Positions 12,731 to 38,266 are shown, counted from the stretch's first letter. The stretch: 48,461 nt of DNA from a virus (IMGVR_UViG_2778261094_000010:1-48461), one strand, 5' to 3'. Program-made: numbers and translations. Notes: a model not told the origin generated them from the sequence alone.

Positions 12731-12739
12731 GCGGGACTC

Positions 12740-14206: not shown

Positions 14207-14526
14207 AGCGGGACAATCCTGTAAGGGCCAGCAAGCCATCTGAAACTCATTGGCGTTTCCAGTTTCTCCACATCGGTGATCGTTGAGCGATTTTCATAAA
14301 AATGACTGACCAGCATCAGCATTGCCAGACGAACGTCATCAGTCAGATGCATCCCGTCAGGATCGTCTTCCGGAATCGTCTCTTCCGGTGCATACAACTT
14401 CCTGTTCAGGTATGTCTCTGTTCTTTTCTGTACCGCCTGTGCCAGCAATTTCAGAAAATCGCCGTCACTGTACAAACCATCATCGAGCCGGAGGTGAGAT
14501 TTAATTTCCTCTTCTTTCAGGAGCAT
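14203..14526 (-). CDS. Head-tail connector protein (gp6-like)
   Basis: 107 aa, MLLKEEEIKSHLRLDD...; follows the major capsid gene after a stem-loop and an AGGAGG ribosome-binding site. Confidence 0.75.
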   Translation of the reverse strand: MLLKEEEIKSHLRLDDGLYSDGDFLKLLAQAVQKRTETYLNRKLYAPEETIPEDDPDGMHLTDDVRLAMLMLVSHFYENRSTITDVEKLETPMSFRWLAGPYRIVPL

Positions 14527-14571: not shown

Positions 14572-15798
14572 TTACGCAGTGGCTTTCTGGCGGGTTGCAG
14601 CCCCAATTTTCATCAGCTTAATCGCCTGAGAATCCACCAGCATACCGCCGGTTCGCTTGGTGGTATAAAAACCCACAAACGGTTTGTTGGTGTACGGATC
14701 GCGCAGGATACGGGTACCGATGCGATCAACGATGGTATAGCCACGTTTGAAGTTACCAAACGCAATGGCTTTTGCATCGGCGGCAATATCCGGCATCTGC
14801 TCATTCTCAACGATGCCATACCCTGCCAGAGAAGAAGGCTGACCCAGCTCAATACCCGGACGCCACAGATAATTTCCGTCGTTATCCTTCAGCAGACGAA
14901 TGGCAAACAGGCTGCTGTTGTTCATCATGAACTTCGCGCCGCTGCGGTGCGCCTTACGCAGGGTGTAAATCAGTTTAATGATCGCATCAGCGGTCACGCC
15001 GGAAGCCGCACCGGAAGCGATATGCTGAAGTTTGCCAAACTTACGGGTTTTGTCATCTTCATCGGTGGACTCATAAGCCAGAAAACCTTTTGGTTTTTTG
15101 CTGCCGTCGCCACTGGTAAAGGCCATTTCTTCCTGTTCGGCAAATTCCAGCGCCAGCTCACTGTTGATCCAGTCTTCCACATTGAAGAAAGCGTCATCGA
15201 GCATTTTCTGGGTGGCCTGCGGGTTGCCGTAGATTTCCCCCATAAAGGGTTCAATCAGCCCCAGTTTTGAGGTGGCGGTTTCCGGACGCGTATCCGTTTC
15301 CCCCACCCATCCGGACTTAGTGCCGCCCAGATTCACCAGTTTTTTATAATCCGAGCCACCGAGGGTGATCACGGTGGCTTCCTGGCGCATCACCACCTCA
15401 TCTTTCAGCAGCGTCAGGATGGTACGATCCAGTTCTTCCGGAATGGCATAACCACCATCTTCATCATTGCCCACCTGAAGCGCCTTACGTTCAAGTTCAC
15501 GCAGACCGTCTTCACGCCCCTTGCGCATAAATCCGATAAACGCTTCTTTGTGTTCACCGGCAACTTTATTTTTCGTGCCGCCTGCCGGACGCTTAACTTC
15601 AGCCAGCTCAGCCTCAAGATCGCTTTTCAGGTTTTCCAGCTCGCTGATTTGCCCGTTCAGGCTTTCCACCTGTTCGGCCAGCTTGCTTTTTTCCTGTTCG
15701 ATCGCGTCAATGCGCTTGTCGTTTTTTGCCTTAAAATCGTCAAACTTCTGCTGCAAATCCTGCGCGACCTGTTCAACGTCTTTAATATCAACAGCCAT
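14572..15798 (-). CDS. Major capsid protein, HK97 fold
   Basis: 408 aa with N-terminal coiled-coil delta-like region then an HK97 capsid core (GGYAIPEE motif); follows the prohead protease. Confidence 0.9.
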   Translation of the reverse strand: MAVDIKDVEQVAQDLQQKFDDFKAKNDKRIDAIEQEKSKLAEQVESLNGQISELENLKSDLEAELAEVKRPAGGTKNKVAGEHKEAFIGFMRKGREDGLRELERKALQVGNDEDGGYAIPEELDRTILTLLKDEVVMRQEATVITLGGSDYKKLVNLGGTKSGWVGETDTRPETATSKLGLIEPFMGEIYGNPQATQKMLDDAFFNVEDWINSELALEFAEQEEMAFTSGDGSKKPKGFLAYESTDEDDKTRKFGKLQHIASGAASGVTADAIIKLIYTLRKAHRSGAKFMMNNSSLFAIRLLKDNDGNYLWRPGIELGQPSSLAGYGIVENEQMPDIAADAKAIAFGNFKRGYTIVDRIGTRILRDPYTNKPFVGFYTTKRTGGMLVDSQAIKLMKIGAATRQKATA

Positions 15799-15811: not shown

Positions 15812-16462
15812 TTAAAATTTAAGATTTTTCAGTGCATTCAGTGCGACATCCACATCCTCAGCATCACGCAGGGATAAAGCGCCATATCCCCCGGCCATGA
15901 ATGCTTTGGCCTGGGTTCGCGAGAGTCCAACATCGCGCAGGACTCGCTCAATAATTTTCTGATCAGGGATCTCCCCACGCGCCAGCGCATTTTTCACATC
16001 GCTGATGCGTGCTTCATCATTGGAAGGAAACGTCACCAGACTGACCTCCCACAGGTCGATCTCTTTCAGCAGGAATACCCCTTTTTCCCGGTCGTACTCC
16101 CAGTCTTTCAGGATGTAGCCAACAGAAAGGCCGGTTAAAGAACCGGCCTTCATATGGGCGTGTGCACGTTTTGCCAGGGGATCATCATCAACGAGTAATC
16201 GCCCCCTGACATAAAGCCCGACATCATCTTCTTTCATTTCGGTGTACACACCGATGGGCTCATCCATGCGGTGCTGCCAGAGCAACGCAGGCAGCGCCTT
16301 TTTTTCGCTCCATTTCTCGAGTGTTGTGGTAAAGGCACCGGGGACCACCACATCATCGTGGCTGTCCTTTACACCAAAGACGGAGCCATACCCTTCAAAC
16401 TCACCGGAGTCACTGACAGATTTCAGACTCAGCGGTACATCAAGACGTTGTTTCGTCTGCAT
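15812..16462 (-). CDS. Prohead protease (HK97 family)
   Basis: HK97-type prohead protease sequence character; start assigned to the ATG at 16462 (MQTKQRLDVP) with an AAGGA ribosome-binding site rather than 16498. Confidence 0.85.
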   Translation of the reverse strand: MQTKQRLDVPLSLKSVSDSGEFEGYGSVFGVKDSHDDVVVPGAFTTTLEKWSEKKALPALLWQHRMDEPIGVYTEMKEDDVGLYVRGRLLVDDDPLAKRAHAHMKAGSLTGLSVGYILKDWEYDREKGVFLLKEIDLWEVSLVTFPSNDEARISDVKNALARGEIPDQKIIERVLRDVGLSRTQAKAFMAGGYGALSLRDAEDVDVALNALKNLKF

Positions 16463-17681
16463 TGGCGTTATCCTTCTGCTTACCGGCTTTACTGCCATCG
16501 GAGGGTTTCGTGGTCATGTTCATCGGTGTGAGATAGACATCCCCACCGGGACGCGGATTCATATCTTCCAGGTCGCGGCAGTCATTGGGAGAGTAAATTC
16601 CCCAGTTAATCCCGGTGGCGTAGGCTTCAAAACGGGATTTCATATCCCCGCGCAGTAACGCCCCGGCGTTAAATTTGGCGTAAAACTTCCCCTGTTTGCT
16701 CTCCCTGACCAGCCCTGTATTGATCCGTTGTTCAATACGGGTCAGATACGGCACAAGGGAATAGTTGATAAATCCGAGCCCCAGCTCTTCAATATTGTTG
16801 AAAGTGGCGCGATCGGTGTTCTGCACCATGTGCAGCGGCACGCGGAAAAGACGACAGATTTCTTCCAGCTGAAACTTGCGGGTTTCCAGGAACTGGCTGT
16901 CCTCGGCGTTCAGTGCCACCGGCTTCCAGTCCAGCCCCATTTCCAGAATCATCGGACGGTGCGCATTACCCAGCCCAAGATGACGCTCCTCAAAATCCCT
17001 CTTCATGCGCTCATAAGCATCCGGCGTGAGCTTTTGTTCCGTACGCAACACACCGGATGTCACAGCACCGTTACCAAACAGCCTGGCGCCGTGCTCCTCG
17101 GTTGCCGCTGCCAGTGAAATGGCCTCGCGCGCATATGCAATGGGATTCAGACCGACAAGTCCATCCAGCGTCAGGGTGCGCACATGCCAGATTTCATCCT
17201 GGGTCAACACATCCACGGAGCCATCCGGAAACGTCACCTGATAAACCGGCTGCCACTGGCTGTTCAGCTTCGGCTCCACACAGCCCGGATCTATCGGAAG
17301 AAGCTCCACTACTTCCCCCAGCGCCTTCACCTTGTAGGCGTAAAAATTCCCCCGCAGACACAGGCAGACAATAACCAGCTCCCAGAATTCCTGCGGCGTC
17401 ATGTAGCCATTGGGTTTTGCTGAAATCAGCTTATGCAGCCGTTCATCCACCGCCCGTGTTTTAAGGGTGCCGCTGATTTTGTAGAGACTGCAGGGCAGCA
17501 TACCAACAGACTCAGCCAGCACCCTGACGCAGGAATACACCGCCGTCAGCCGCATGGCCCGCTGGCTGCTGATCCGCTTTCCGGTATAGGTGTCGTATGA
17601 CAACCCCAGCTCTTCCGCAAGCATCCCGGGCGTTGTGACGGGGGTGTTATTTTTACGTTGAAAAAGCCCCTGGAAAAACAT
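16440..17681 (-). CDS. Portal protein (HK97 family)
   Basis: 413 aa portal-like sequence immediately downstream of the terminase fragment and upstream of the protease. Confidence 0.9.
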   Translation of the reverse strand: MFFQGLFQRKNNTPVTTPGMLAEELGLSYDTYTGKRISSQRAMRLTAVYSCVRVLAESVGMLPCSLYKISGTLKTRAVDERLHKLISAKPNGYMTPQEFWELVIVCLCLRGNFYAYKVKALGEVVELLPIDPGCVEPKLNSQWQPVYQVTFPDGSVDVLTQDEIWHVRTLTLDGLVGLNPIAYAREAISLAAATEEHGARLFGNGAVTSGVLRTEQKLTPDAYERMKRDFEERHLGLGNAHRPMILEMGLDWKPVALNAEDSQFLETRKFQLEEICRLFRVPLHMVQNTDRATFNNIEELGLGFINYSLVPYLTRIEQRINTGLVRESKQGKFYAKFNAGALLRGDMKSRFEAYATGINWGIYSPNDCRDLEDMNPRPGGDVYLTPMNMTTKPSDGSKAGKQKDNANADETTS

Positions 17682-17874: not shown

Positions 17875-18611
17875 TTAAAGCGAGCGAATACCAACGCTGA
17901 CCAGATGTTCAGACAGATCCGGCTCCGGTTCACCGCCATTGACCAGCATCCGGCTCATTGCTGTAAACATCGCAACAGGGCCGTCGATTTTGGCTTCCGG
18001 CGTGGATTTATTCGGGAAGATATTGTCGTTTTTGTCCGGTTTTACCGTAACGTTAGACATCATCCAGTTCATGACCGGATGATTGCTGTGGTGGAAACGC
18101 CCGGCATAGACCAGTGATTCCGTTTCCTTCATGGCCTCTGACAGATTGCGGACCGTCTGCGGAACTTCCACCAGCGGTATACCTTCTTCAGTCAGCGCCA
18201 GACTGAACTGCATTGCGCTCCACGGGTCAAATCCCAGTTCCCTCAGGTTTTCACCGCCAATCCATTCCAGTAGGTCACTTTTGATCTGAGCATGATCGAT
18301 AACATCACCATCCGTCAGGATGAGCTTACCCATCTCCGCCCACTTCCGGTAAAGTTCTGCCTGCTGCCGTGAGCATCGTTCCAGCCGTCCTTCCGGAAGC
18401 CAGAATTTAAAATCGGCATGAACATGCCCGTTATCCGTTCGCCAGAGTTTTGCCGCCGCACAGATATCAATCTTATGAGCAAGGTCGACGCCGACCCACA
18501 TGGGATATGTTTTCAGCTCATGCTGTGGAGCAATGTATTCGCACTTCTCCCACTTAATCATGTCCATCCAGGCAGACTCTGCTGTTACCCACACATTCAT
18601 GTGTTTGGTAA
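17875..18611 (-). pseudogene. terL: Helper prophage terminase large subunit, C-terminal nuclease-domain fragment (3' half of a terL split by the satellite)
   Basis: Translation NVWVTAESAW...WVGVDLAHKID...KIDGPVAMFTAM aligns with the C-terminal nuclease domain of the intact satellite TerL (NIWCQGATPW...AGLDLSSTSD...KIDPSVAALMAF); the reading frame runs up to the 7-bp core at 18605..18611. Confidence 0.8.
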
Positions 18612-18620
18612 GAATATTTC
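18601..18620. repeat. Left attachment junction (attL-like): exact 7-bp core TTGGTAA at 18605..18611 plus imperfect flanking match
   Basis: TTGGTAAgAAtATT here versus TTGGTAAaAAaATT at 33522..33535; marks the boundary between the terL C-fragment and satellite DNA. Confidence 0.65.
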
Positions 18621-18894
18621 AAGTTTTTTAAAATCACCTGTATATCAATCGTTTAACATGAAAAAACAGTCTTTATAAATCATCAAGCAATACACAGCGC
18701 AATACACGTATCTGTATTGTTTTAATGCTGATACACACCGTTTTTTGATACAGTGATTCGACCTACCATCGCGAAGCATTTTTTATTTCTTGTGTGTAAC
18801 AATCTGACGAGGTGAGCACTCAAAGAGATAAGAGGCAGTAGAAATTTCGATCACCCCCCTGAATGCAATTTTTCGTATATATATACAAAACAGC

Positions 18895-19047
18895 GCGGGT
18901 TATGCGGGTTAGCGGGTTATCTTCGCGTGCTAAGTATTTTTTGCTCTTTAATATCAATGCGTTAAAAAACAACGTATTTAAATATCAGCCAGAATGTAAC
19001 CCGCAAGACATTCAAAATAACCCGCACCCCTCCCTCAAATAACCCGC
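18895..19047. repeat. Iteron cluster B: 3 tandem GCGGGTTA(T/G) repeats, AT-rich spacer, 3 inverted (A)TAACCCGC copies
   Basis: Direct copies at 18895..18920, inverted copies at 18997..19004, 19017..19025 and 19039..19047, preceded by a TATATATATA tract; same repeat unit as the cluster downstream of the replication gene. Confidence 0.7.
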
Positions 19048-19128
19048 AAAAACATCCCTGAAAGTGGGTACCGGTAATACTGAAAATTTATTCCATTAAA
19101 TGAGCATTGTCCTCTCTCATCCATTCCG

Positions 19129-20790
19129 TTACACACCATCAAACGCCGCAAGCCGCTCTTTGTGGCTGTCGCTCATATCGAATGCAAATTCCTCATGCTC
19201 TGCCTGGAATGTGCCAAACGCCATCAGCGCCGCAACGCTCGGGTCTATCTTGTTGGATGATTTTTTCTTGTTCGGCTTGATATTGGCGTTCGCGTCACTC
19301 TGCATCACAACATTACTCATTGACCAGGCCAGCACCGGATCGCCACGATGCACAATCACCTTCCGGTTAACAAAAACTTCGAACGATTTCGCCGCCGGAC
19401 TGAAACGAAGGTATGTTTGCGGGAACGGCTCCACCTCAAATCCTGCCCCCTGTAGCTGCGTCCTCAGGTGCGTGGCGTTCCATGTATCGAAGCCCACCAG
19501 CCTGATATTGAAATTCTCTGCATCCGCCATGATGTCATCACGGATACGGTCATAATCAATGCAGTCACCCGGTGTTGTGCGTATCCAGCCCGCCTTTACC
19601 CACTGGCGATAGATGGCGCGGTTTTTATTGGCGGGGTTCTGTAGCTGAAATTCAGGCAGATAGTGACGGGAAACCAGCATAATCTTTTTACCGACCGGAA
19701 AGGCATAGCACACGCTGGAAATATCGCTGGTTGATGATAAGTCCAGCCCCGCGTAGCACTCCTGCCCGTATAAATCCGCCTCCGCGAACGTTCCGGCGCA
19801 CTCCGCCCATGCACCGTTACCCATCCACGGCGTAGCCCCCTGACACCAGATATTGAATCGCTTGGTGAGCATTTCCACCCACTGCGACGGAATACCCCGC
19901 GCTTTCTGGATGGTTGAGGCCAGTTTTTCACGATCGACGGAAACATCGATATTGGGATTCGCCTTTATCCACATCGCCGGATCGTCAACCTCGCTTTCAT
20001 CATCCAGCTCGTAAATCAGCACGAACATGGATTCGTTCACCTCTTCACCATCCAGTATCTGGCAGCAATAGTCATAGTGTTGTTTACAGGCTGAAACAAC
20101 GTTGCTCCCCGATGTGGTGATGGCAAATAACAGCCCCTCCGGACGCGCCCCCATTCCCAGTTCAAGCGCGGAATAAACCCCGTTGTCAGGGTGCAGGTGA
20201 TATTCATCCACAATGGCAAGGCTCGGGTTTGTACCTTCAATGGTTGCCGCTTTTGCTGCCAGTGGCTTTAACAGGCTGTTGGTTTTCGGGTGTATCACCT
20301 TGTGTGCCTGAATATTTACCCGCTTTCGTAACGGTCGGGATAAAAGGCACATCTGACGCGCATCATCAAACACGATCCGCGCCTGATCACGACTCACGGC
20401 GGCGGTGTAAATATCCTGCTGCCCGTTTTCCATAACCAGAAACCAGTTAGCCAGGATAGCGGCGACCGTGGATTTGGCATTTTTTCGCGGCACTTCAATG
20501 AATGCGCTGGTGTATTTGCGCCGTCCGGTGGCCTTAACCTTAAAGCCCAGGATGCACGCAAAGGCGAACTGCTGCCACGGCTCCAGCTCAATGGGGCTAC
20601 CGCGCATTGCGCCTTTTACGTGCGGACACACCCTGGAAAAGGCAATAAACCGCTCCACGACCTCCGGATCGAACGTGTAAAGGGGGTTTTCAAGGTCAGA
20701 AAAATACCGTTTAACGGCCTGTTTCAGTCGTTTACAGGCCGTAATTTTGCCGTTTTTTACGCCTTCTGCGTACTCATGCCAGGCGGTCAA
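19129..20790 (-). CDS. terL: Satellite terminase large subunit (intact)
   Basis: 553 aa with N-terminal ATPase and C-terminal nuclease domain (AGLDLSSTSD, KIDPSVAALMAF); apparent TTG start at 20788..20790 overlapping the TerS stop, preceded by a GAGGAAGAGGA ribosome-binding site. Confidence 0.9.
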   Translation of the reverse strand: MTAWHEYAEGVKNGKITACKRLKQAVKRYFSDLENPLYTFDPEVVERFIAFSRVCPHVKGAMRGSPIELEPWQQFAFACILGFKVKATGRRKYTSAFIEVPRKNAKSTVAAILANWFLVMENGQQDIYTAAVSRDQARIVFDDARQMCLLSRPLRKRVNIQAHKVIHPKTNSLLKPLAAKAATIEGTNPSLAIVDEYHLHPDNGVYSALELGMGARPEGLLFAITTSGSNVVSACKQHYDYCCQILDGEEVNESMFVLIYELDDESEVDDPAMWIKANPNIDVSVDREKLASTIQKARGIPSQWVEMLTKRFNIWCQGATPWMGNGAWAECAGTFAEADLYGQECYAGLDLSSTSDISSVCYAFPVGKKIMLVSRHYLPEFQLQNPANKNRAIYRQWVKAGWIRTTPGDCIDYDRIRDDIMADAENFNIRLVGFDTWNATHLRTQLQGAGFEVEPFPQTYLRFSPAAKSFEVFVNRKVIVHRGDPVLAWSMSNVVMQSDANANIKPNKKKSSNKIDPSVAALMAFGTFQAEHEEFAFDMSDSHKERLAAFDGV

Positions 20791-21130
20791 GCTCGTCCTC
20801 TTCCTCTGTTTCCGGTGGATTTCTGCGGCGACTTACCGGGTCAAAACCCAGCAAAGAAGCCATTTTGATCATTATTCTTTCAGCGTCAGCCTTTGCGCTC
20901 AGGGCGGGGTTTCTGCTCTCGCTGCCCTGACTGTTAACAATGCTGAACCCGCGCGTGGCAAGGTCTTCGACGGCTTTGCGGTATATGGAGTAGTTAACAC
21001 AATACAGCTCCAGATTGCTCCAGTCGGCGGGGGTAAGGTCTTCCCGTCCGGAAAGCTGGCGCGATTTTTCCTTCCACTGCCTGACCGCGATTTCATCCAG
21101 GTAAGCGGGGGCTTTTGGTGGTCTTGCCAT
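20774..21130 (-). CDS. terS: Satellite terminase small subunit (P27-like family)
   Basis: Translation from MARPPKAPAYLDEIAVRQW resembles P27-family small terminases; start assigned to the ATG at 21130. Confidence 0.8.
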   Translation of the reverse strand: MARPPKAPAYLDEIAVRQWKEKSRQLSGREDLTPADWSNLELYCVNYSIYRKAVEDLATRGFSIVNSQGSESRNPALSAKADAERIMIKMASLLGFDPVSRRRNPPETEEEDELDRLA

Positions 21131-21418
21131 GTTCTTTTTTCGCCCAATTATTTTCAAAAAAATTCCCGTGCACAAAAATTTGAGGAGGCGGTCGGTGTCC
21201 GGCAGGGACGGTTTCGTCCTGAAAACCACCCCCACCCCCTCTGACGGCCTCACCAGCGATTGCGAAAACATTCCATGACCTCGCGGTCACGGTCGGTTAA
21301 TCACTTCGCTGTGGTGCGTTTTGTGCGCCCTGTCCTGTTGGCTTTGTGCCCTGTCTCCTGTGTCTTCCATAAGTCACGCTGCCTTATCAGTCCACGTATC
21401 AGCCTGGTTTGCTCCTGT

Positions 21419-21859
21419 TCAGTCATCATCGCCATACATCCAGTCGTTACGGTGTGCTGCCCGTTCTTCCTGCTCGCGATACATGCCCGCCTTACGGTTC
21501 GCTTTCGTGGCTGGATCTTCCCGTGTCGTCTTACGGTTGTGGCACGTCTGGCACAATGCCTGGTGGTTCCACTCAGGCCAGAAGAGAACATCACCGCCGC
21601 CATTGATGGGGATGATGTGATCCACCACAAGAGCTGGCGTATAAATCCCCTTAGCCAGACAACGCACGCATAACGGGTTTTTGCTCAGGTACAGGGCGCG
21701 GTATTTGTCCCACTGTCGGGAATACCCGCGCGCGCGGCGGTGTCCCCGTCTGGCATCCTCTGCACGCCATGCAGCCCGTCTGTGCTCTTCACACTTGCCG
21801 GACTTCACGCGCTTATTACAGCCCGGCTCAGTGCATCGCCTTAATGGTTGCCACGGCAT
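21419..21859 (-). CDS. HNH endonuclease (terminase-associated)
   Basis: Cys-rich zinc-finger motifs (CNKRVKSGKCEEH, CVRC, CQTCH) and HNH-like His/Asn; located upstream of terS-terL as in HK97-like packaging modules. Confidence 0.85.
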   Translation of the reverse strand: MPWQPLRRCTEPGCNKRVKSGKCEEHRRAAWRAEDARRGHRRARGYSRQWDKYRALYLSKNPLCVRCLAKGIYTPALVVDHIIPINGGGDVLFWPEWNHQALCQTCHNRKTTREDPATKANRKAGMYREQEERAAHRNDWMYGDDD

Positions 21860-22161
21860 CAGTACACCCCCACATCACGATAAACCGACCAGAGCGCAGA
21901 AATAGCCATAGGCAGTTCAGACTGCTCCACTGGTGAAACTGCTTCCCTGTTCTCGTACAGGAAAGCGATGTACATCAGGCAACCAACACGCATTGCCGGG
22001 GTAAATTCCAGCCCGTCTTCAAAACGTTTCCCGATATGCTTCTGGCAGGCTTCCAGCGCCGCATCGGTATACATTTTCAGAAGTTCGCCTTCACCGGATA
22101 AATCATCATCAAGTCGAAGATGTGCCCTGACTTCATCAGGTGTAATTCTGGCTTCACTCAT
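21859..22161 (-). CDS. Satellite head-tail connector protein (gp6-like)
   Basis: Translation from MSEARITPDEVRAHLRLDDDL parallels the helper gp6-like protein (MLLKEEEIKSHLRLDD); GGGAGA ribosome-binding site before the ATG at 22161. Confidence 0.7.
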   Translation of the reverse strand: MSEARITPDEVRAHLRLDDDLSGEGELLKMYTDAALEACQKHIGKRFEDGLEFTPAMRVGCLMYIAFLYENREAVSPVEQSELPMAISALWSVYRDVGVY

Positions 22162-23368
22162 CTTTTCTCCCTTTAATTTCCACAGTCTGTTTCCATGCCT
22201 GGCTGAACTCATCACCACCTTCACGCGGCGGCATACCCTCGCGTTCGCGAGCTTCGTTCGGATTCATGATCCCGCTCTTAATCCCTTTCTCATACGTGGC
22301 ATAACGTTCGGTGGGTGTGGCGCGCAGTAAATCGGCTGAATCAAACTCAACCAGATAACGGGTACCAGGTACGGGAGAAGTCACCAGCAAAGCGGCCTTG
22401 ATTTGCTGTTCGAAGTTCGCCAGCCACGGGCGCATTGTCATGGTCAGAAATGCGCGGCTCGCCTCACTGAAATTGCTGTAGGTGCTGTTGCTGTATTCCT
22501 GAAGAAAAATCGGCGACACGTTGAACATCCTGGCGATGTCTTCAATGGAGAAGCGACGGGAGGCCAGCCATTCCGCATCCTGGTTACTCATCCCCAGCTG
22601 CCTGTAATCCATGCCCCCTTCAAGGATTGGCGTTTTTCCGGCATTTTTCGCCCCCTTGTAGCGTTCCAGTGCGTCTAATGCCTGTTTACCTTTCACGCCG
22701 TCCAGCCATTCACCTGACGTGATAATCCCTGCCGCCATCATGCCATCTTTCATAATGCTGGCTCCGTGACGCTGTTGAGCAAGGCCAAGCCCCAGCGCCT
22801 CACGGCAAATCGTGACGGGGGAACGCCCCAGAAAGCCATCATCCGAGGCATAGCGGAGATGCAGAACTTCTTCCTGTAAATACGTGCGCACCGTTCCTGT
22901 ACAGGGTTCGGTGATGGTATAGCGGTATTTGTGTGTGCCTGTGCGTTCCGGTACAACACACCCCGGCGCATAAGGATGAAGTGATTTTGGCTGCCCGTCC
23001 CGCCCCCACTCAATAACCGCATAGGCGTTACCGTTCAGCAGGCAGTGACGCATCATTGTGCGTTTAAACTGGTAAGGTGTCAGGCACGAATTAGGCTGCT
23101 CATTCAGCAGAATATCTACCGGGTGACTGTCCAGCCATTCCCGCGCCTCTCTGCCCTTATCATTGCGTACCAGATACAGGTAACACGGCATCGTGGCCAC
23201 CGCCTCAGCGATGACAGAAACCGCGTTCATCACAGCAGGCAATGATTCAGCCGTCCCGGCAGAAACATATTCTCCGGATCCGGTATTTGGTACACCAGAC
23301 AACGCCAGAAAATCATCAATGGACAGGTTACGCAGATCGCTTTTTTTACGACTAAAAGGCCACCACAT
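22154..23368 (-). CDS. Satellite portal protein (HK97 family)
   Basis: Portal-like sequence; start assigned to the ATG at 23368 (MWWPFSRKK), one nt after the protease stop. Confidence 0.85.
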   Translation of the reverse strand: MWWPFSRKKSDLRNLSIDDFLALSGVPNTGSGEYVSAGTAESLPAVMNAVSVIAEAVATMPCYLYLVRNDKGREAREWLDSHPVDILLNEQPNSCLTPYQFKRTMMRHCLLNGNAYAVIEWGRDGQPKSLHPYAPGCVVPERTGTHKYRYTITEPCTGTVRTYLQEEVLHLRYASDDGFLGRSPVTICREALGLGLAQQRHGASIMKDGMMAAGIITSGEWLDGVKGKQALDALERYKGAKNAGKTPILEGGMDYRQLGMSNQDAEWLASRRFSIEDIARMFNVSPIFLQEYSNSTYSNFSEASRAFLTMTMRPWLANFEQQIKAALLVTSPVPGTRYLVEFDSADLLRATPTERYATYEKGIKSGIMNPNEAREREGMPPREGGDEFSQAWKQTVEIKGRKDE

Positions 23369-23369
23369 A

Positions 23370-23930
23370 TCACAACCCCGCCAGTTCAGCCCAGCGATGA
23401 CGATTATTTCCTGCCGGGCGTAATTCAGGGTACTGTGCAAACAACGAACGGTGGGCAATCTCCACGCCGGATTCGGGATAAGCAGGCATCGATGTTATCG
23501 TGATTTCACGGAGTTCTGCGGCGGTTACAGTACGCAGATACGGTTTTTGCGCGATATTCCACTCCTCGCATAATGCGCGAAAGCCAAAGCTCATTCCTGT
23601 AATATCGCCACGTTCCACCAGCGTAAGCACATCTTTTCCAAGCTGGGTATTTGGCGGTGTCAGTTCAAAACGTAGCCCGGTGTTATCCTCAGTCAGTACC
23701 AGTGAGCCGGATTTGGTACGCCCCAGCAGTTGGGTATAGTCATGCTCATACAGACAGCGCACATCATTACCCGCCGCCAGATAGTCAGCAAAAGCCCCCG
23801 GCGTGAACTGTTCGCGAAACTCGTCCCAGATAATTTCTGAAAGGCTGTTCCAGCGAACGGCATAACCCACCAGTTTTTTATCGCTGGCGGTCAGTTCAGA
23901 TGTACGGATTTCAAAATCGGTGTTTTTCAT
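23370..23930 (-). CDS. Satellite prohead protease (HK97 family)
   Basis: Translation from MKNTDFEIRTSELTASDKKLVGYAVRWN with conserved His/Ser regions (YEHD, GMSFGF); GGAG ribosome-binding site before the ATG at 23930. Confidence 0.85.
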   Translation of the reverse strand: MKNTDFEIRTSELTASDKKLVGYAVRWNSLSEIIWDEFREQFTPGAFADYLAAGNDVRCLYEHDYTQLLGRTKSGSLVLTEDNTGLRFELTPPNTQLGKDVLTLVERGDITGMSFGFRALCEEWNIAQKPYLRTVTAAELREITITSMPAYPESGVEIAHRSLFAQYPELRPAGNNRHRWAELAGL

Positions 23931-23979
23931 CGGTGTACTCCATAAAGCTGAAAAAGGAGGCCGAAGCCCCCTTTGCTCA

Positions 23980-25125
23980 TTACTTGCCAGCCTGAATTTC
24001 CAGAATCTTGATGGCGTTCGAATCCACCACACCACCGCCCAGATATTTCTGGGTATAGATGTTAATGAATCCAGGCTCGCTGAAATCCGGACGGGTACGC
24101 GTACCGGTTTTATGGTCAACGATGAAATAACCGCGCTTAAAGTCACCGACTGCAATCACACCGTCCGGCATAAATTCCAGATATTCAACCGGAAGCCCCA
24201 GCAGAGAATCAGGATCACCAGCCTGTAAACGATCGCGCCAGATGTAATCACCAGTGGCATTTTTCAGTTTTTGTGCGGAGGCGGCTGTATTTGAGTTCAT
24301 CACCCATACAGCTTTTTTGCGGTACTTATTGCGCAGCGTAAATTTCAGGTCAATCAGCATATCGGCGCTGAGACTGCCAGTCACTTTTTTCGTCTGGAGC
24401 GTACCGAAAGGACGGGTTTTGTCATTATCCGTAGTGCGCGGGAAAGTCAGGAAACCTTTGGCTTTTTTCTCGCCATCACCGGAAACCAGATCCGTTTCTT
24501 CGGTATCAACGAAAGTGTCGCCAATTTCAGAAGATAACCAGCCCATAATATCGACTTCGGAAAAATCGATAATTTCCTGAGTGGTTTTCGGGTAAGCGTA
24601 GATCGGATACAGGCGGATACTGACTTCATTCAGTTTTGGGGTTGCCGTCTGGTTACGTGCCGCACCTTCTTCGCCGTGTCCCACGACCGCACCCCCGGCA
24701 GAAACCAGTTGCTTAAATTCATTACTGTGAATGGTTTTAACAGTACAGATTTTACGCATCACCGACTCATCAGAAAGCTGACGCATAATTTCTCTGTTCA
24801 GTTCCGGGATAACCGTATAACCACCATCAGCCGGAACACTGCCGGACAGGTTGCGGGTTTCCCCGGTCAGAATGTAAGAGCGTAGCTCGTCTTTGGTGAT
24901 TTTATCTTCGACGGGAACACCAGGCTGGTTACGTTCTTCATCAGCCACAGACTCGAGGCGGGAAATTTCTGTGTCGAGGGAATCGGCTTTTGCACGCAGT
25001 TCATCAAACTGTTTGCCCTCGTCATCGGTTAGACTGCGGTTTTCACTGTCGGCTTTTTCCAGCAGGGATCGCATCTGGTTTTTCAGGGCGGTTTTTTGCT
25101 GGCGGAGTTCGATTAATTTCTTCAT
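23980..25125 (-). CDS. Satellite major capsid protein (HK97 fold)
   Basis: 381 aa; N-terminal coiled-coil delta-like domain followed by an HK97 core (ADGGYTVIPEL); homologous in outline to the helper capsid protein but clearly diverged. Confidence 0.9.
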   Translation of the reverse strand: MKKLIELRQQKTALKNQMRSLLEKADSENRSLTDDEGKQFDELRAKADSLDTEISRLESVADEERNQPGVPVEDKITKDELRSYILTGETRNLSGSVPADGGYTVIPELNREIMRQLSDESVMRKICTVKTIHSNEFKQLVSAGGAVVGHGEEGAARNQTATPKLNEVSIRLYPIYAYPKTTQEIIDFSEVDIMGWLSSEIGDTFVDTEETDLVSGDGEKKAKGFLTFPRTTDNDKTRPFGTLQTKKVTGSLSADMLIDLKFTLRNKYRKKAVWVMNSNTAASAQKLKNATGDYIWRDRLQAGDPDSLLGLPVEYLEFMPDGVIAVGDFKRGYFIVDHKTGTRTRPDFSEPGFINIYTQKYLGGGVVDSNAIKILEIQAGK

Positions 25126-25360
25126 GAAGGTTTTCTCGCATTGGTTAAGATTCAGGACGTGAAACCAACACGGGGGGAGCGCCGCCCGACACTCTCGGCA
25201 TCTCGCAGATCAACCCGGCATCGCGCAGGGGGTCAGGCGGCATTGTGGCGGCTCACGTCTGAGTGCCACACGCCAACATATACATAAAAATCAGTATGTA
25301 AACATCAGCCAGAATCACCGAACAACCTGGAACAACCACGAACAAATAATTTACAAAACC

Positions 25361-25396
25361 TGAAAAAAGGCCCGGAAAAAATCCGGGCCTTTATCG
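25361..25396 (-). terminator. Rho-independent terminator (bidirectional hairpin GGCCCGG-N7-CCGGGCC flanked by A and T runs)
   Basis: Perfect 7-bp stem with A6 upstream and T-rich downstream, immediately 3' of the minus-strand gene ending at 25399. Confidence 0.7.
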
Positions 25397-25398
25397 CT

Positions 25399-25647
25399 TT
25401 ATTGTTTCACTGGCTCCCGCATTCTGCGTCTTATTTTCCACAAATATTCGATCATCGCTTCCACCTGCTCACGGTTGGTTGCGAAAATTTCCCCGGTCAG
25501 TGAGCTACGCAGAAAATCATGATGATCCACAAAAAATAACGCATCGGAAGAAAGCAACCGACGATATTTTTTTGCTGTCGTGGTTTCCAGATCATCAAAA
25601 CCATGAAGCTTTTTATGTTGCTGAACTTCTTCAAATGTCACTGGCAT
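25399..25647 (-). CDS. Hypothetical satellite protein
   Basis: 82 aa ORF overlapping the upstream gene end and followed by a terminator; no recognisable motif. Confidence 0.4.
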   Translation of the reverse strand: MPVTFEEVQQHKKLHGFDDLETTTAKKYRRLLSSDALFFVDHHDFLRSSLTGEIFATNREQVEAMIEYLWKIRRRMREPVKQ

Positions 25648-26180
25648 GTATCCCCCTTTGCTGCCCGGCGCTGGCGCTTGTGCTTCTCATTCAGCACCAT
25701 CAGCCGTGTTTCTGCCTCCTGCTGTTCCTGTGGTGTCACTTCCCCACATGGCTGGCCTTTCAGGTCGTAACGTGCGCCACCAGCTATCAGGGCGCGGTAA
25801 TAGCGCGGAGACTGCGCATAGGATGCCAGCGTCGCACGTAATACCCCCGACCCGAATGCCAGCCCCCTGACGGCGATATCCTGCATCAGGTCGTCGAATA
25901 TCCCCACCTTAAGCGGCTTCGGTGCTTTATGGCTGAATAAGTCAGGCCACATCTCAGTGAGGCGGTTAACGCGTCGGCGGTTTTTGCGCTGCCTTTTGGT
26001 CATATGCTGCCACGGTGTCGCCCCTGCGGTCTTCTGTTTGCGGCTCTGCTGTGCGTTCTGATTATCGGGTATCACTTTATGCGCCGATGTGGTTTTATCC
26101 TGCTCTTGCGCCGCCTGCGTCGTTTTCTGCGGCGTGCCGTAAATGCCTTTCGGCTTCCGGTTAATGGTCAGCGTTGTCAT
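25638..26180 (-). CDS. ProQ/FinO-family RNA-binding protein (putative RNA chaperone)
   Basis: Basic N-terminus, then a FinO/ProQ-like core (PLKVGIFDDL...RYDLKG). Confidence 0.55.
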   Translation of the reverse strand: MTTLTINRKPKGIYGTPQKTTQAAQEQDKTTSAHKVIPDNQNAQQSRKQKTAGATPWQHMTKRQRKNRRRVNRLTEMWPDLFSHKAPKPLKVGIFDDLMQDIAVRGLAFGSGVLRATLASYAQSPRYYRALIAGGARYDLKGQPCGEVTPQEQQEAETRLMVLNEKHKRQRRAAKGDTCQ

Positions 26181-26216
26181 GCCTTCCCCCGTAATTACTC
26201 TGTTCGCTGTTGTGAA

Positions 26217-26642
26217 TTAAAACGGTATGTTATCCCCGTACGGGTCATCGTGCTGGCTTGTCTGTTGTTTTGCCCTGTTCAGTGCGTCAGTGGCCTGGCC
26301 CTGTTGACCTTTTTTGCCGCCCGGTCGCGCCGTTCGCGCACTGATTACGCTGTCTGCAATAACCTGCCAGCCCTGCCGCGTTTCCCCGTTCTGGCCTGTC
26401 CACTGGCTCACCTGCATGTTACCCGCCACGCTCACCAGTTCGCCTTTGTGGTGTTTTGCCAGTGCGTCGGCCTGTCTGCCAAACGCCAGGACAGATAACC
26501 ACATCGTCGCCGTTCCGTCATCTGCCTGGCTGCACGGCAGGGGAACCGCCATACTCGCCATCGCCATTTGTGTCCCTTTGCTGGTGGTCTTTAACTGCGG
26601 GTCAGCCACCAGCCGCCCGTAAGCCGCTATCTGTGCTGTCAT
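26217..26642 (-). CDS. ssb: Single-stranded DNA-binding protein (SSB)
   Basis: OB-fold-like N-terminal region, Gly/Gln-rich linker and an acidic C-terminal tail ending DDPYGDNIPF (compare the canonical SSB DDDIPF tail). Confidence 0.7.
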   Translation of the reverse strand: MTAQIAAYGRLVADPQLKTTSKGTQMAMASMAVPLPCSQADDGTATMWLSVLAFGRQADALAKHHKGELVSVAGNMQVSQWTGQNGETRQGWQVIADSVISARTARPGGKKGQQGQATDALNRAKQQTSQHDDPYGDNIPF

Positions 26643-26706
26643 GCTGTCTGTTCTCCGGTTTTAACGTTGATTGTTACGCTTGTTTACACCCTTACGGTGA
26701 AATTCT

Positions 26707-26829
26707 GCGGGTTATAATCGCACTTTTGCGGGTTATAACTGCCGTTTTGCGGGTTACGTGCGGGTTATTGATTTCCTTTTTATTCATACAGTTAATGCAC
26801 TTATACACAGGATAACCCGCATAACCCGC
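26707..26829. repeat. Iteron cluster A (putative satellite replication origin): 4 direct GCGGGTTA(T/C) repeats, AT-rich spacer, 2 inverted ATAACCCGC copies
   Basis: Direct copies at 26707..26715, 26728..26736, 26749..26757 and 26760..26768; inverted copies at 26812..26829; located just downstream of the replication protein gene. Confidence 0.7.
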
Positions 26830-26852
26830 AACTTTTTACATCACACAGGGGG

Positions 26853-28976
26853 TTAATCTTCTGCCTCAGGCTGGAACATCAGCACGTAAAAAACATGCTG
26901 CTTCCCCCCAATTTTGCTGAGCGCCTTTTTCTTGTAACGGCGGTCGTTCCCCTTTTCCAGCATCCCCGCCGCATCAAGCGCTCTTGCAAAATGCGACGGG
27001 TTAAATCCCTGTGCGATCTCACCTTCAAACACATGCGGGAACGTGTAAAAACGGAACTCGTCATCTTCGTTTCTGATACTCCCCTTTCTGTATCCGGCAA
27101 GTTCTTTAATCGGTAAATCACGCTCGTCGGTGTTGGGCCACGGAAGGTATCTGCTGAATCCGAACGACGCTAAAAAAGCCTCTGCCTGTTCAACCATCTG
27201 TTTAAATTCCCTGTTACCCGTGCCGAACTCCTTCACCCAGGCATTAAAATTATGCTGTATGGCATCGCGGCACGCCTGAACATCCCAGCCAGTAATATGA
27301 CCGGACAACACTAACGCCGCCTCAAGCATGGCAAATCGCTCCCCCACACGGTGAACCTGTTCGCCGTAGCTCTCCGGTATCAGGTTGCGCCACCGTTCAC
27401 GGCATGCCCTTACCGTGTCCTTTGCTTCCTGCTGGTGGTTTGCCAGCCATTTAACCCACTCTCGACCCGCCGCCCCGTGATTTTCTGTCCAGGCATCCTT
27501 TAACGCGTCTGCGTGCGCCTTTCCGGTGCTGTATTCGTGAAACTGCGTGGCTTTTTCCATCGGCACGTTAAGCAGGCGGACAAGCTGCCCCGCCTTGACT
27601 TTTATCCCCTCCGTTTTGAGGAATGTTTCAACGTCCATTTCTCCGGTGCTGATTGCCACCGTGCGCCAGTGTTTGATCTCCCTGTTGCCGCCGTCCTTCG
27701 CCCCCTGTAATTTCCCCGAACCGTTAAACAGCGTATAGGCTGACGTGGACACCTCCCGCGCGTTTCCGGCCTGACCTATTTCATCCAGGGGTAACAGCCC
27801 ATCATTATGTGCTTCGGCCTCGTTGGCGATACCTAACGCCGTGCCGTACCAGGTCAGCCGTTGTGCGTCCGGCTCTCCCCATAAACTGGATGCGATGTTC
27901 TGTGTGGTGGTTTTCCCTGCCGATGACTGTTCGAAAAGATGTACCCCGAAGCCGTCAGCCCCCACCAGCCCGATTAATGGTGCGGATAACGATACCGCCA
28001 CACCCAGCATCATGGACGGATTACCACCAGCCAGCCGCGCCACGGTATCGCGCCAACCCTCCGCCGTTCCTGCCACGGAATAGCCATTAACAGCAGCCGT
28101 TTTTCCGGTAAACAGGGCTGGCTTTTCGCAATCACCAATGACCGAACCGTCCGGCATGATGTACGCGCCAAAATGCCAGCCCGTTGTTGTGCTTAACTGC
28201 CATTCCTCATGGCTTCCGCTTAACTGCATCCAGTCAGCCAGGATAGCCCTGTATTTGCCGTTAGTTGTTACGTTCAGTCCGTGGTCTTTCAGCAGCCGCC
28301 AGCCGTCACGGTCGCCAATGCCACCGCACGGAACCGCCATTGTGATGACTTCATGGTTTGCTAATTTTTTCCAGCGCATCACGCGGTAATGCTCTTTACC
28401 GATTGTCCCCGTTCCCAGTAGTTCAAGCGGGGAACATAACCACGTCTCAGGCCGGATAATTTCGCCTGACTGCTTATCCACTTTTGGCGTTACCCAGAAA
28501 ACACCATCGGCGCGACTTTCAACGCGGGGCTTTAATTCATCATCGCCCTGGCTTTCTGTAATTTTTTTCTTTAAAGGCAACACCAGACTTTCCCCGCGCT
28601 CGTATTCGTCTTTGAGGCGAGGCAACTGGTCGGATAAATCCGCCGGGCTGGTGTCAGTTATACCCGCGTATTCGTATACGGTCTTCACGCCAGCCACAGC
28701 CAGCAACGTGACGATCTGTGTAAGGCTACGTTCAGTGATGTGCCCTGCGCGGTAAACACGCACACACTGACGGCTATCATCAATAATTTGATAACCGGTA
28801 ATATCTTTCAGGTGTTCATCTGACAGAACGACAGGTGGCACATTGTCGGCGGCAATATGCTTACCTGCCCATTCCTGCCACTCTTTCGCATGGCTCCACG
28901 CATCACTACCCGCAAAGATGATAACCTCCGTCATTTTGTCGGCTGGCTGGTGCTTTAAGTTTGGTGCGCGCTTCAT
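26853..28976 (-). CDS. Replication protein, DUF927-type primase/helicase (P4 alpha-like or PICI Rep-like) with Walker A motif
   Basis: 707 aa; Walker A-like SSAGKTT within a DUF927-like helicase core; adjacent iteron cluster; ATGA-type overlap with the upstream ORF. Confidence 0.75.
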   Translation of the reverse strand: MKRAPNLKHQPADKMTEVIIFAGSDAWSHAKEWQEWAGKHIAADNVPPVVLSDEHLKDITGYQIIDDSRQCVRVYRAGHITERSLTQIVTLLAVAGVKTVYEYAGITDTSPADLSDQLPRLKDEYERGESLVLPLKKKITESQGDDELKPRVESRADGVFWVTPKVDKQSGEIIRPETWLCSPLELLGTGTIGKEHYRVMRWKKLANHEVITMAVPCGGIGDRDGWRLLKDHGLNVTTNGKYRAILADWMQLSGSHEEWQLSTTTGWHFGAYIMPDGSVIGDCEKPALFTGKTAAVNGYSVAGTAEGWRDTVARLAGGNPSMMLGVAVSLSAPLIGLVGADGFGVHLFEQSSAGKTTTQNIASSLWGEPDAQRLTWYGTALGIANEAEAHNDGLLPLDEIGQAGNAREVSTSAYTLFNGSGKLQGAKDGGNREIKHWRTVAISTGEMDVETFLKTEGIKVKAGQLVRLLNVPMEKATQFHEYSTGKAHADALKDAWTENHGAAGREWVKWLANHQQEAKDTVRACRERWRNLIPESYGEQVHRVGERFAMLEAALVLSGHITGWDVQACRDAIQHNFNAWVKEFGTGNREFKQMVEQAEAFLASFGFSRYLPWPNTDERDLPIKELAGYRKGSIRNEDDEFRFYTFPHVFEGEIAQGFNPSHFARALDAAGMLEKGNDRRYKKKALSKIGGKQHVFYVLMFQPEAED

Positions 28977-29287
28977 TTTGCCTTTCCCCGTTCACGAATA
29001 ATTTCACGTACTGCCTTAATGCGTTCCATTCCTGTAACGCGCATGATTCTGTCGATGTCGCTTAATTCTGCTGGTGGTGCTTTGCTTACCAGGGGGAACT
29101 CCCTTTCAAAGCGCATATGCGACGACACGCAGGGATGCGCATAACCTTCGCGGATATAGGTCACGCGAAAATCATCGACGGTTTTAATCGTTATCGTGCT
29201 GCCGTATTTATCCCGGAAAATATCGCCGGGGCGGATTTCAGGCCGAGCGTGACCGCTGGCAGTAAAGCCAGAATTTTTCTTTTTCAT
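28973..29287 (-). CDS. Hypothetical satellite protein
   Basis: Start assigned to the ATG at 29287 (MKKKNSGF); translationally coupled to the replication gene. Confidence 0.4.
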   Translation of the reverse strand: MKKKNSGFTASGHARPEIRPGDIFRDKYGSTITIKTVDDFRVTYIREGYAHPCVSSHMRFEREFPLVSKAPPAELSDIDRIMRVTGMERIKAVREIIRERGKAK

Positions 29288-29294
29288 GTTTTTT

Positions 29295-29543
29295 TTACTC
29301 CAGAGGCAGCTTTTTAGCGGCGAGCTCAATATCAGATGTCAGAGAAACCTGTGTATTTGCCAGGTCTAACAACAAAGAAATAAGAATTTCTTCTCTGCTA
29401 TCGGATTTATCGGTGCTAAGGCTGTTCATCCACATATTGACGACTTCCCTGATTTTTTTCGCAGAGTGCAGGGCTTCAAATGCCAGGCCTTCAATATCAT
29501 GTTTATTTCGCATAATCGCCCCCGCCATTTTCACAATCAGCAA
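29295..29543 (-). CDS. Hypothetical satellite protein
   Basis: 82 aa ORF in the early operon; no recognisable motif. Confidence 0.35.
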   Translation of the reverse strand: MLIVKMAGAIMRNKHDIEGLAFEALHSAKKIREVVNMWMNSLSTDKSDSREEILISLLLDLANTQVSLTSDIELAAKKLPLE

Positions 29544-29748
29544 TCAGGATGGCTTTTGCCTCATTCAGCGCCATATCAGCACTAAATTGCATAAGAGCCA
29601 GTGAGTGAGGAACGAAAGCCCCGGTATATTCTGTTTCGCTGGTGGCGTGCTTATGCGCCTTGTCTGCGATAACAGAAATATCAATCAGCGCGTGCATCAG
29701 CGTTTTGATGGCTTCGGCGGCTGCGTCCGGTGTGGTTTTATTATGCAT
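29503..29748 (-). CDS. Hypothetical satellite protein
   Basis: 81 aa ORF in the early operon; no recognisable motif. Confidence 0.35.
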   Translation of the reverse strand: MHNKTTPDAAAEAIKTLMHALIDISVIADKAHKHATSETEYTGAFVPHSLALMQFSADMALNEAKAILIADCENGGGDYAK

Positions 29749-29944
29749 AGGTTTCCCCCTGGCGAATACGGGCGGCGAATACCATCACGCAGCCATCAGG
29801 AGATTGCTGACGCGCTTCCTGTTCGCTGGTGGCCTCAATGGTAATCACGCGCGGTTGTGCCGTGCTCAGGGCGATAAAACGCCAGATGTATTTATTCAGG
29901 TTGTACGAGTCCCGCCCTTGCGGGTGTCTGGTATAATTTCTCAT
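29741..29944 (-). CDS. Hypothetical small protein, first gene of the minus-strand early operon
   Basis: 67-codon ORF (MRNYTRHPQGRDSYNL...) with a GAGG ribosome-binding site, transcribed divergently from the operator region. The listed 349-aa ORF is treated as a read-through artefact. Confidence 0.4.
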   Translation of the reverse strand: MRNYTRHPQGRDSYNLNKYIWRFIALSTAQPRVITIEATSEQEARQQSPDGCVMVFAARIRQGETYA

Positions 29945-30041
29945 AGCTACCTCGATACGCTTTCTATCGTTGGTGGTTAGAAGCCCGGTTAGTGTTAGCG
30001 CACTGCCGGGTTTCGTCGTTTCTGCACCTTGCATCAGTAAG

Positions 30042-30093
30042 GTGTTGAACACCAATTTAAGCCCTGGTGTTAAACACGTCAAGTGTTGAACAC
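30042..30093. promoter_or_regulatory. Operator-like triple palindrome GTGTT(G/A)AACAC in a divergent promoter region
   Basis: Near-palindromic 11-mers at 30042..30052, 30067..30077 and 30083..30093, between the minus-strand early operon and the plus-strand small regulator gene. Confidence 0.6.
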
Positions 30094-30143
30094 TTATTTT
30101 TTTTCCTGCATACTGCATTTGTTTTTTGTAAGGGGTACACAAC

Positions 30144-30323: not shown

Positions 30324-30380
30324 CCATCACCAGCGCCGTGGTGTAAGGTATTACGGCGCATTGCTATGCAGGACAACACA

Positions 30381-30554: not shown

Positions 30555-30620
30555 TCACATTGCCCACCAGCCGCAAATGTGGCATTGTTGGTGATGCTTT
30601 TGTTTTCCCTTGTTCCCACT

Positions 30621-38253: not shown

Positions 38254-38266
38254 AGGGTACAGATAA

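Follow-up and report, generated by a model that had tools for sequence, protein, structure and literature searches.

A probable capsid-forming, helper-embedded satellite in the terL gene of a phiP27-like lambdoid prophage

The viral DNA IMGVR_UViG_2778261094_000010:1-48461 (48,461 nucleotides; the window, as we call the whole stretch analyzed) carries a lambdoid prophage whose large terminase gene, terL, is interrupted by a second element of about 15 kb. This element, the satellite, is very probably a phage-inducible chromosomal island of the capsid-forming kind (cf-PICI) that is at the same time a helper-embedded PICI (HE-PICI). It is placed in the A_Terminase_1_246 group of HE-PICIs because it is integrated, co-oriented, inside terL of a phiP27-like lambdoid prophage, its helper. 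A cf-PICI would here disable the terminase of its helper by insertion while carrying an unrelated terminase of its own, and this combination would by design put the satellite ahead in packaging. It would also illustrate cleanly how regulated gene integrity can act on a virus instead of a cell.

Insertion in the helper terL

All substantial open reading frames (ORFs) of the window are on the minus strand, transcription proceeding from high to low coordinates, and the main genes of the satellite share their orientation with the late genes of the helper. The interruption leaves the helper terL in two parts, 33522-34549 and 17875-18604. The 5′ part reads into 54 unrelated satellite codons before it meets a stop; the resulting ORF of 397 aa (33356-34549) has the Pfam ATPase domain and positions 2-68 of the nuclease profile. 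The 3′ part is an ORF of 241 aa (17875-18600) that has nuclease positions 64-283 and no ATPase domain. The sequence TTACCAA is present at both satellite/helper junctions, and the limits of the satellite were set by in-silico excision: when the flanks are joined at this core, an in-frame helper TerL of 585 aa results. In six Escherichia coli genomes, an annotated intact terL matches the rebuilt 600-nt junction without a break and at 100% identity. At 80% coverage or more, the junction is found in 905 of 5,426 complete E. coli genomes, whereas 36 genomes have the attL junction of an occupied site. The gene being split, the helper in the lysogen would be without functional TerL. The attP site brings no replacement sequence, and the helper terL stays broken until excision.

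The attachment region also has presumed integrase arm sites. A doubled TGTATTGC motif lies on the int side as TGTATTGCacTGTGTATTGC, its half-sites beginning at +135 and +147 from the center of the attP core, and a second, co-oriented copy lies on the other side, with half-sites beginning at −98 and −86. The motifs match the HE-PICI-specific doubled motif tgTGTATTGCantgTGTATTGCa, two co-oriented copies of which flank the attP core, as given in the HE-PICI study (Tommasini, Mageeney and Williams, 2023; PMC10111431). The integrase starts with an ATG at 33350, in-frame upstream TTG codons extending to 33386, and shares 99.5% identity with the integrases that E. coli elements at this insertion site encode. 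From this identity and the match in att and arm sequences, it probably belongs to the 11capE-related clade. The terL of the satellite itself reads CTCACCAAG around codon 315, where the helper terL has TTTACCAAA. TTACCAA occurs nowhere in the satellite gene, which is therefore no target for the satellite's own integrase.

The head and packaging module

Seven genes for head formation and packaging run from 25125 down to 19129 on the minus strand of the satellite: major capsid, protease, portal, gp6-like connector (Ad1), HNH endonuclease, small terminase (TerS) and large terminase (TerL). The order and outer limits agree with a preliminary description of this DNA, also after a check of the start codons, and the Pfam and PHROG matches are strong (Table 1). 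The genes are packed closely, abutting or overlapping; only HNH and TerS are set apart, by a spacer of 288 bp.

The gene order was described as non-canonical. For the class it is not: cf-PICIs of Proteobacteria have the conserved order capsid-protease-portal-connectors, then hnh-terS-terL (Alqurainy et al., 10.1101/2022.09.08.507074), and vB_KppS-Ant (Escherichia phage, LR881103.1), deposited as a 16.5-kb “induced prophage,” has the same module order as the satellite. One real difference from phages stands, the exchanged places of capsid and portal. The helper has the usual phage order of HNH, TerS, TerL, portal, protease, capsid and connectors; that its terL is split by the satellite itself went unmentioned in the preliminary description. 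Drawn as circles, the satellite reads cos-TerS-TerL-[attP, int, regulation, replication]-capsid-protease-portal-connector-HNH-cos, and the helper cos-TerS-TerL-portal-protease-capsid-connector...HNH-cos. Since attP lies between terL and int, the apparent rearrangement is mostly a permutation, and no structural genes other than capsid and portal have changed places. The alternative that the preliminary description had itself named, a mere permutation of a phage head region made of recent helper sequences, is thus half right: the order is largely permuted, but the sequences are not recently helper-derived.

The divergence was seen in a pairwise comparison of all seven genes. Satellite and helper proteins are homologous at 19-38% aa identity (capsid 36%, protease 19%, portal 32%, connector 31%, HNH 38%, TerS 27%, TerL 32%), as clearly diverged as had been claimed, and the TerS N-termini quoted earlier (MARPPKAP in the satellite, MSGPPKTPP in the helper) are correct. 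The corresponding proteins of vB_KppS-Ant (capsid, protease, portal, Ad1, HNH, TerS and TerL) are 62-86% identical to those of the satellite. In the INPHARED phage collection, no phage exceeds 76% nt identity to the module, and the best matches are themselves satellite-sized records. Several phage-collection records that match cf-PICI modules are of satellite size and are probably satellites deposited as phages.

A cos site common to satellite and helper was considered and ruled out, the HNH-TerS spacers of the two being without similarity: their alignment scored no better than that of shuffled sequence. The satellite spacer has a G-rich element, GGGGGTGGGGGTGGTTTTCAGGA, at 21217-21239, which is conserved next to the genome end of vB_KppS-Ant. 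The linear, virion-derived genome of the latter begins 22 nt ahead of terS and stops just past the G-rich element, which, if these are physical ends, places cos between HNH and terS. The satellite cos would then lie in its HNH-TerS spacer (21131-21418), as in HNH-dependent cos phages. The dissimilar spacers, as putative cos regions, are consistent with the separate packaging specificity suggested earlier for satellite and helper.

Table 1. Coordinates of the satellite, of the helper prophage and of the capsid alleles compared (window positions unless stated)
Feature	Position	Strand	Remarks
Whole satellite	18612-33521	-	14,910 bp; 14,917 bp with one core copy
attL core TTACCAA	33522-33528	-	helper terL N-part / satellite int side
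Doubled TGTATTGC motif, int side (TGTATTGCacTGTGTATTGC)	33371-33390	-	presumed integrase arm site
Tyrosine integrase	32142-33350	-	Phage_integrase 1.4e-18, Arm-DNA-bind_3 1e-17
AlpA-family regulator/excisionase	31928-32161	-	Phage_AlpA 2.5e-09
Second AlpA-family helix-turn-helix protein	31586-31864	-	Phage_AlpA 5.6e-10
Bro-N domain protein (“Bro zone”)	30935-31531	-	Bro-N 2.1e-16
DUF927 primase/helicase-type replication protein	26853-28976	-	DUF927 1.4e-45
Single-stranded DNA-binding protein (SSB)	26217-26642	-	annotation in near-identical relatives, 98% identity
ProQ/FinO-family protein	25638-26180	-	ProQ 8.5e-24
Major capsid, 381 aa, HK97 fold family	23980-25125	-	Phage_capsid 8e-61; PHROG major head 1e-85
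Prohead serine protease, 186 aa	23370-23930	-	Peptidase_S78 4.5e-45
Portal, 404 aa	22154-23368	-	Phage_portal 1.6e-91
gp6-like connector (Ad1), 100 aa	21859-22161	-	Phage_connect_1 4e-05; PHROG “head-tail adaptor Ad1” 5e-29
HNH endonuclease, packaging accessory	21419-21859	-	HNH 8.8e-10; PHROG HNH endonuclease 3.6e-45
HNH-TerS spacer, putative cos location	21131-21418	-	by genome ends of a relative
Small terminase, P27 family, 118 aa	20774-21130	-	Terminase_4 1.7e-23; N-terminus MARPPKAP
Large terminase, 553 aa	19129-20790	-	TerL_ATPase + TerL_nuclease; PHROG 4.5e-181
Doubled TGTATTGC motif, second co-oriented copy	18687-18706	-	other side of attP core
attR core TTACCAA	18605-18611	-	satellite terL side / helper terL C-part
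Lambdoid early/regulatory region	from 48440 down	-	DnaC-like loader, DUF968, RusA, Q, kinase/phosphatase, methylase, tRNAs, TerB-like
Helper antiterminator Q	41742-42437	-	
Helper lysis genes	upstream of HNH in transcription direction	-	holins + M15 endolysin
Helper HNH	35179-35532	-	
Helper TerS	34549-35031	-	N-terminus MSGPPKTPP
Helper terL, 5′ part	33522-34549	-	ATPase domain + first ~68 nuclease profile positions
Helper terL, 3′ part	17875-18604	-	nuclease profile positions 64-283
Helper portal	16440-17681	-	
Helper protease	15812-16498	-	
Helper capsid	14572-15798	-	
Helper neck and proximal tail	11076-14526	-	phiP27-like, 95.4% nt
Helper Ad1	14203-14526	-	Phage_connect_1
Helper head-completion protein	13790-14206	-	Phage_HCP
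Helper neck-region ORF	13300-13824	-	
Helper tail terminator	12740-13303	-	Phage_tail_terminator
Helper sheath	11076-12572	-	Phage_sheath
Capsid alleles compared	window 23980-25125; L001 11485-12654; L002 19482-20651		

Neck genes and tail donors

Ad1 is the sole neck gene of the satellite. No Phage_HCP (head-completion protein, HCP) gene is present between its portal and HNH genes, where portal, connector and HNH abut and leave no room, and the gene is likewise lacking in all six relatives examined. Nor was any tail or lysis gene found between the att cores by gene annotation and domain searches. The head-completion protein and the tails would therefore have to come from elsewhere. What the natural partners might be is suggested by vB_KppS-Ant, whose connector shares its C-terminus with that of the satellite. 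The HCP of vB_KppS-Ant is 35% identical to the HCP of siphovirus-tailed helpers (E 7e-22), vs. 20% over 71 aa to that of the present helper (E 0.005), which points to siphovirus-type necks. The siphovirus-type and phiP27-type helper HCPs have no significant similarity to each other (E 0.03). Published cf-PICIs use non-contractile tails, and capsids of theirs that have no tail can be fitted with tails present in other lysates (He et al., 10.1101/2025.02.11.637232), so that the resident prophage is not necessarily required for mobilization.

The near-identical satellites (95-100% aa in integrase, primase, protease, portal, connector, HNH, TerS and TerL) are mostly found in terL of siphovirus-tailed prophages, as in GPT24-02, the OkiPb strains, tcmA_3 and KFu019; the loci L005 and L006 were compared by RefSeq protein accessions and annotated gene lengths. 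Satellite and contractile-tailed helper occur together in two of the 36 occupied-site complete E. coli genomes, ETEC4090 and UMNF18, and about 41 complete genomes have a contractile-tailed helper with intact terL. The site is thus occupied in 2 of ~43 contractile-tailed helpers vs. ~34 of ~900 others. The helper of the window is 99.8% identical over head and neck to unoccupied prophages and ~96% identical to the helpers of ETEC4090 and UMNF18, which fits more than one integration event.

The major capsid gene of these satellites has two alleles, of 381 and 389 aa, which share no more than 69% identity in elements otherwise 95-100% identical in aa sequence. This suggests that the capsid gene alone has been replaced, cassette-like. 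The 381-aa allele was first seen in two composites with myovirus-type helpers and the 389-aa allele in two with siphovirus-type helpers. The idea that tail type goes with a particular allele of capsid or connector had to be given up: siphovirus-type tails are combined with the 381-aa allele in tcmA_3 and KFu019, and an identical satellite connector, WP_001288063.1, is present in UMNF18 (myovirus-type) and KFu019 (siphovirus-type). Across tail contexts the satellite Ad1 is 95-98% identical, with the differences confined to a few N-terminal residues. In the ETEC4090 composite (L003 1130-2455, 22126-23413) and in that of UMNF18 (L004 6241-6802, 14269-15353), genes are annotated as frameshifted or truncated, the baseplate, tail terminator, primase, TerS and HNH genes being among them. 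These composites may be decaying, or in UMNF18 the defects may be old sequencing errors.

Weighing the explanations

If the satellite is a cf-PICI embedded in its helper, as we consider highly probable, its cycle can be pictured as follows. Upon induction, Q-antiterminated late transcription of the helper would pass through the lysis genes, HNH, TerS and the 5′ part of terL into int and alpA; such cis-activation is proposed in PMC10111431. The satellite would excise at TTACCAA, with repair of the helper terL, replicate with its DUF927 primase and express its late operon, possibly under AlpA control. Small capsids would be made of its own capsid, protease, portal and Ad1 proteins, by analogy with cf-PICI work. 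The HNH, TerS and TerL proteins of the satellite would cleave at a cos of its own, located between HNH and terS, and fill the capsids with the genome of ~15 kb. A borrowed head-completion protein and tail would finish the particle, the donors being probably of siphovirus type and possibly of the resident contractile type.

Several points weigh against this reading. Induction, excision, capsid formation and transfer are carried over from published families. The satellite is without one of the 11 core components of cf-PICIs, the head-tail adaptor Phage_HCP, so it may be an exception to the rule that such an element “only steals tails.” The C-terminal part of its Ad1 aligns with the Ad1 of the contractile-tailed helper without the 5-residue gap that is seen against the siphovirus-helper Ad1, a weak hint from the alignment that this end is slightly more like the former. 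Finally, the terL site is occupied at a similar rate in the two kinds of helper, which gives no indication that the satellite avoids myovirus-type prophages.

These last points lead to the question of tails. The preliminary description was correct that the satellite has no tail genes and that the helper has a contractile Mu-like tail; from this it argued that the satellite would need to dock its capsids onto myovirus tails. That need is unsupported. The target of integration is terL, not the tail, and the same head/terL module is elsewhere linked to siphovirus tails (88-98% aa); only 2 of the 36 occupied genomes are of the contractile kind; and the connector shared by UMNF18 and KFu019 is found in both contexts. 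A specific adaptation to the contractile-tailed helper, by which the satellite capsids would be joined to phiP27/Mu-type tails through the helper HCP, seems to us rather unlikely, even though the prophage in which the satellite lies, and with which it would be induced, has no tail other than the contractile one. It would agree with the intactness of the satellite in the window, with the gap pattern of Ad1, and with the occurrence of the pairing in three independent sequences (the window, ETEC4090 and UMNF18), where the identities fit more than one integration. But satellite genes do not co-vary with tail type, the same connector and capsid allele being found in both contexts, and the dissimilar helper HCPs, together with the siphovirus-like character of the HCP that usually partners such an Ad1, speak for another kind of neck. 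Moreover, published cf-PICIs use non-contractile tails, and both other myovirus-type composites have frameshifted or truncated genes. In sum, the sequence evidence leans against specific adaptation to contractile tails, and the use of myovirus tails by the satellite is possible but unsupported. HK97/lambda-type siphoviruses are the more likely donors of neck and tail, and the contractile context would then be a by-product of a conserved terL target. A broader proposal is that the adaptor-less lineage depends on the helper for HCP too and uses both HK97/lambda-type and phiP27/Mu-type neck and tail systems. We regard this as unlikely; if true, it would be the first cf-PICI shown with a myovirus tail, and embedding in terL would ensure that the satellite can draw on any neck and tail genes joined to the common head module.

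Two further explanations would deny the satellite a productive life in this prophage or an origin of its own. It could be stranded, that is, integrated at the terL att site, not mobilizable here, and merely inactivating the packaging of the prophage. The tail/neck mismatch and the missing HCP gene would fit, as would the decay of both partners in ETEC4090 and the many truncated helpers with “abandoned” HE-PICIs noted in PMC10111431. We judge a stranded insertion improbable nonetheless, for all satellite ORFs are full length relative to relatives, the helper genes visible in the window are all intact (apart from the split terL), and tail-less cf-PICI capsids can take tails from other lysates. 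The other explanation makes the module a recent duplication or capture of the helper head region, circularly permuted, and the element a prophage remnant rather than an autonomous satellite. The same seven functions are indeed found in both elements, the difference in order mostly vanishes on a circular map, and capture of helper late genes by PICI late zones has been proposed by Tommasini et al. Against these stand the 19-38% aa identity to the helper vs. 62-86% to another cf-PICI, and the capsid/portal swap, which cannot arise by permutation. The element also has integrase, AlpA, Bro and primase zones of its own with precise att sites, and prophages 99.8% identical to the helper over head and neck exist with intact terL and without the element. 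A recent helper origin is thus very improbable, and the helper-embedded cf-PICI is the reading we favor.

Other genes of the satellite and the helper

Terminator-like hairpins follow the first AlpA gene (31904-31885) and the second (31577-31552), and a DUF4222 gene is listed between the Bro-N and DUF927 primase genes. A search of the Bro zone for P4-like immunity RNAs (C4/isrK) with Rfam at E≤0.01 gave only a sub-threshold match to symR (32.8 bits, E 0.007, vs. a gathering score of 61), which is treated as chance. On the strand opposite to the main genes, 29945-30017 (+) and 30669-30769 (+) hold the symR match and a promoter-like site. The best promoter-like site of the region is on this plus strand (10/12, extended −10), with a strong terminator-like hairpin 45 nt later. 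These features could represent a small antisense or immunity RNA, or chance.

The helper is close to phiP27, an Stx2e phage (NC_003356): identity is 95.4% nt over 90% of the head-to-baseplate region, and an HK97-type head, a Mu-type contractile tail and a P27-family TerS are common to both. The tail genes comprise sheath, tube, tape measure, gp45, gp46, Baseplate_J and gp48. The two differ in that the megablast match stops at window position 17892, just within the 3′ end of the helper terL fragment, the remaining terL being unmatched, and in that the present helper bears the satellite in terL. The genes from HNH through capsid are instead common with siphovirus-tailed lambdoid/HK97-like prophages at ~91-92% nt, or 88-98% aa in TerS, the C-part of TerL, portal, protease and capsid. 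This similarity ends near 14604, which marks a mosaic breakpoint at the 3′ end of the capsid gene (14572-14604). Downstream of that gene, the neck and the phiP27/Mu-type tail are unrelated to those of the siphovirus-tailed prophages.

In phiP27 and other Stx phages, toxin genes occupy this position downstream of Q. Here three tRNA genes are found (37576-38426): one with a CAT anticodon, called Met here and annotated as tRNA-Ile in relatives, Arg-TCG and Arg-TCT. Between the tRNAs and the holins the sole gene is a TerB-family ORF (37576-38001), and no stx was seen there, downstream of the tRNA cluster in the window, another difference from phiP27. An island of low GC content (40093-41672; 38-40% GC vs. 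~52% elsewhere) lies between Q and the methylase gene and has genes for a PP2C phosphatase and for a Ser/Thr protein kinase of eukaryote-like type. It is possibly a prophage-borne exclusion or defense module resembling the Stk of phage 933W.

Comparison with known satellites

By the published descriptions of cf-PICIs, of which EcCIEDL933 is the prototype, the satellite has the PICI-type half (integrase, two AlpA proteins, DUF927) and its own capsid, protease, portal, connector, HNH, TerS and TerL in the published order. Its 14,917 bp, free of tail and lysis genes, are within the 10-15 kb of the class. The proteins of cf-PICIs are <40% identical to their phage homologs (Alqurainy et al.), as are those of the satellite to the helper. 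The satellite departs from the class in having Phage_connect_1 only, instead of a connector and adaptor pair; EcCIEDL933, EcCIGN02175, KpCIDSM30104 and vB_KppS-Ant all carry the head-tail adaptor/Phage_HCP. The SatelliteFinder paper, however, accepts cfPICI with 10 of the 11 components as “Type B,” where the satellite would fall. It departs also in its att site, which is inside a prophage terL, whereas cf-PICIs were defined by chromosomal att sites that prophages never occupy. The prophage-free site was a search criterion in Alqurainy et al. and not a mechanistic requirement. Lastly, the characterized cf-PICIs use siphovirus tails (He et al.), and the resident helper here has a contractile one.

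Another known relative with the module is vB_KppS-Ant. The gene order of its record is TerS, TerL, ..., integrase, ..., primase, capsid, protease, portal, HCP, connector, HNH. Unlike in the satellite, portal and connector are separated by a Phage_HCP gene, and the two integrases have no more than 47% identity; nor is vB_KppS-Ant known to lie inside a prophage. Directly after terL it has an ORF of 765 aa (LR881103.1 2036-4333), annotated as tape measure, which has no Pfam match and no counterpart in the satellite.

The HE-PICIs, as described in PMC10111431, occupy 14 sites in prophage late genes, including A:Terminase_1:245/246, and the supplement of that study lists E. coli elements of ~15 kb at A_Terminase_1_246 with the identity block “ttaccaa.” The satellite has the same target gene and codon region, the same block and the same attL and attR flanks. 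It has the same doubled TGTATTGC motif in both arms, and the same four zones: Integration, Bro, Replication and Late. Late-gene integration, co-orientation and an attP without replacement sequence are features of both. The published motif-core distances are 81 and 132; those of the satellite differ by a few bp, probably through measuring convention. Where the two accounts part is the late zone, which that study treats as captured helper genes without the cf-PICI concept, whereas that of the satellite is complete and deeply diverged.

Two concepts published separately, cf-PICIs (Penadés and Rocha groups) and HE-PICIs (Williams group), thus describe the same element. Among the literature searched, the two terms occur together only in the SatelliteFinder paper, which merely cites the HE-PICI preprint. 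The satellite combines known things: its gene order and its embedding had each been described before, in two papers neither of which mentions the concept of the other, and it is a fresh, intact example in a phiP27-like, contractile-tailed helper that also highlights an adaptor-less lineage of cf-PICIs. As the same satellite, lacking an HCP of its own, is found in contractile and non-contractile prophages alike, it offers a natural test case for the matching of capsids and tails in cf-PICIs.

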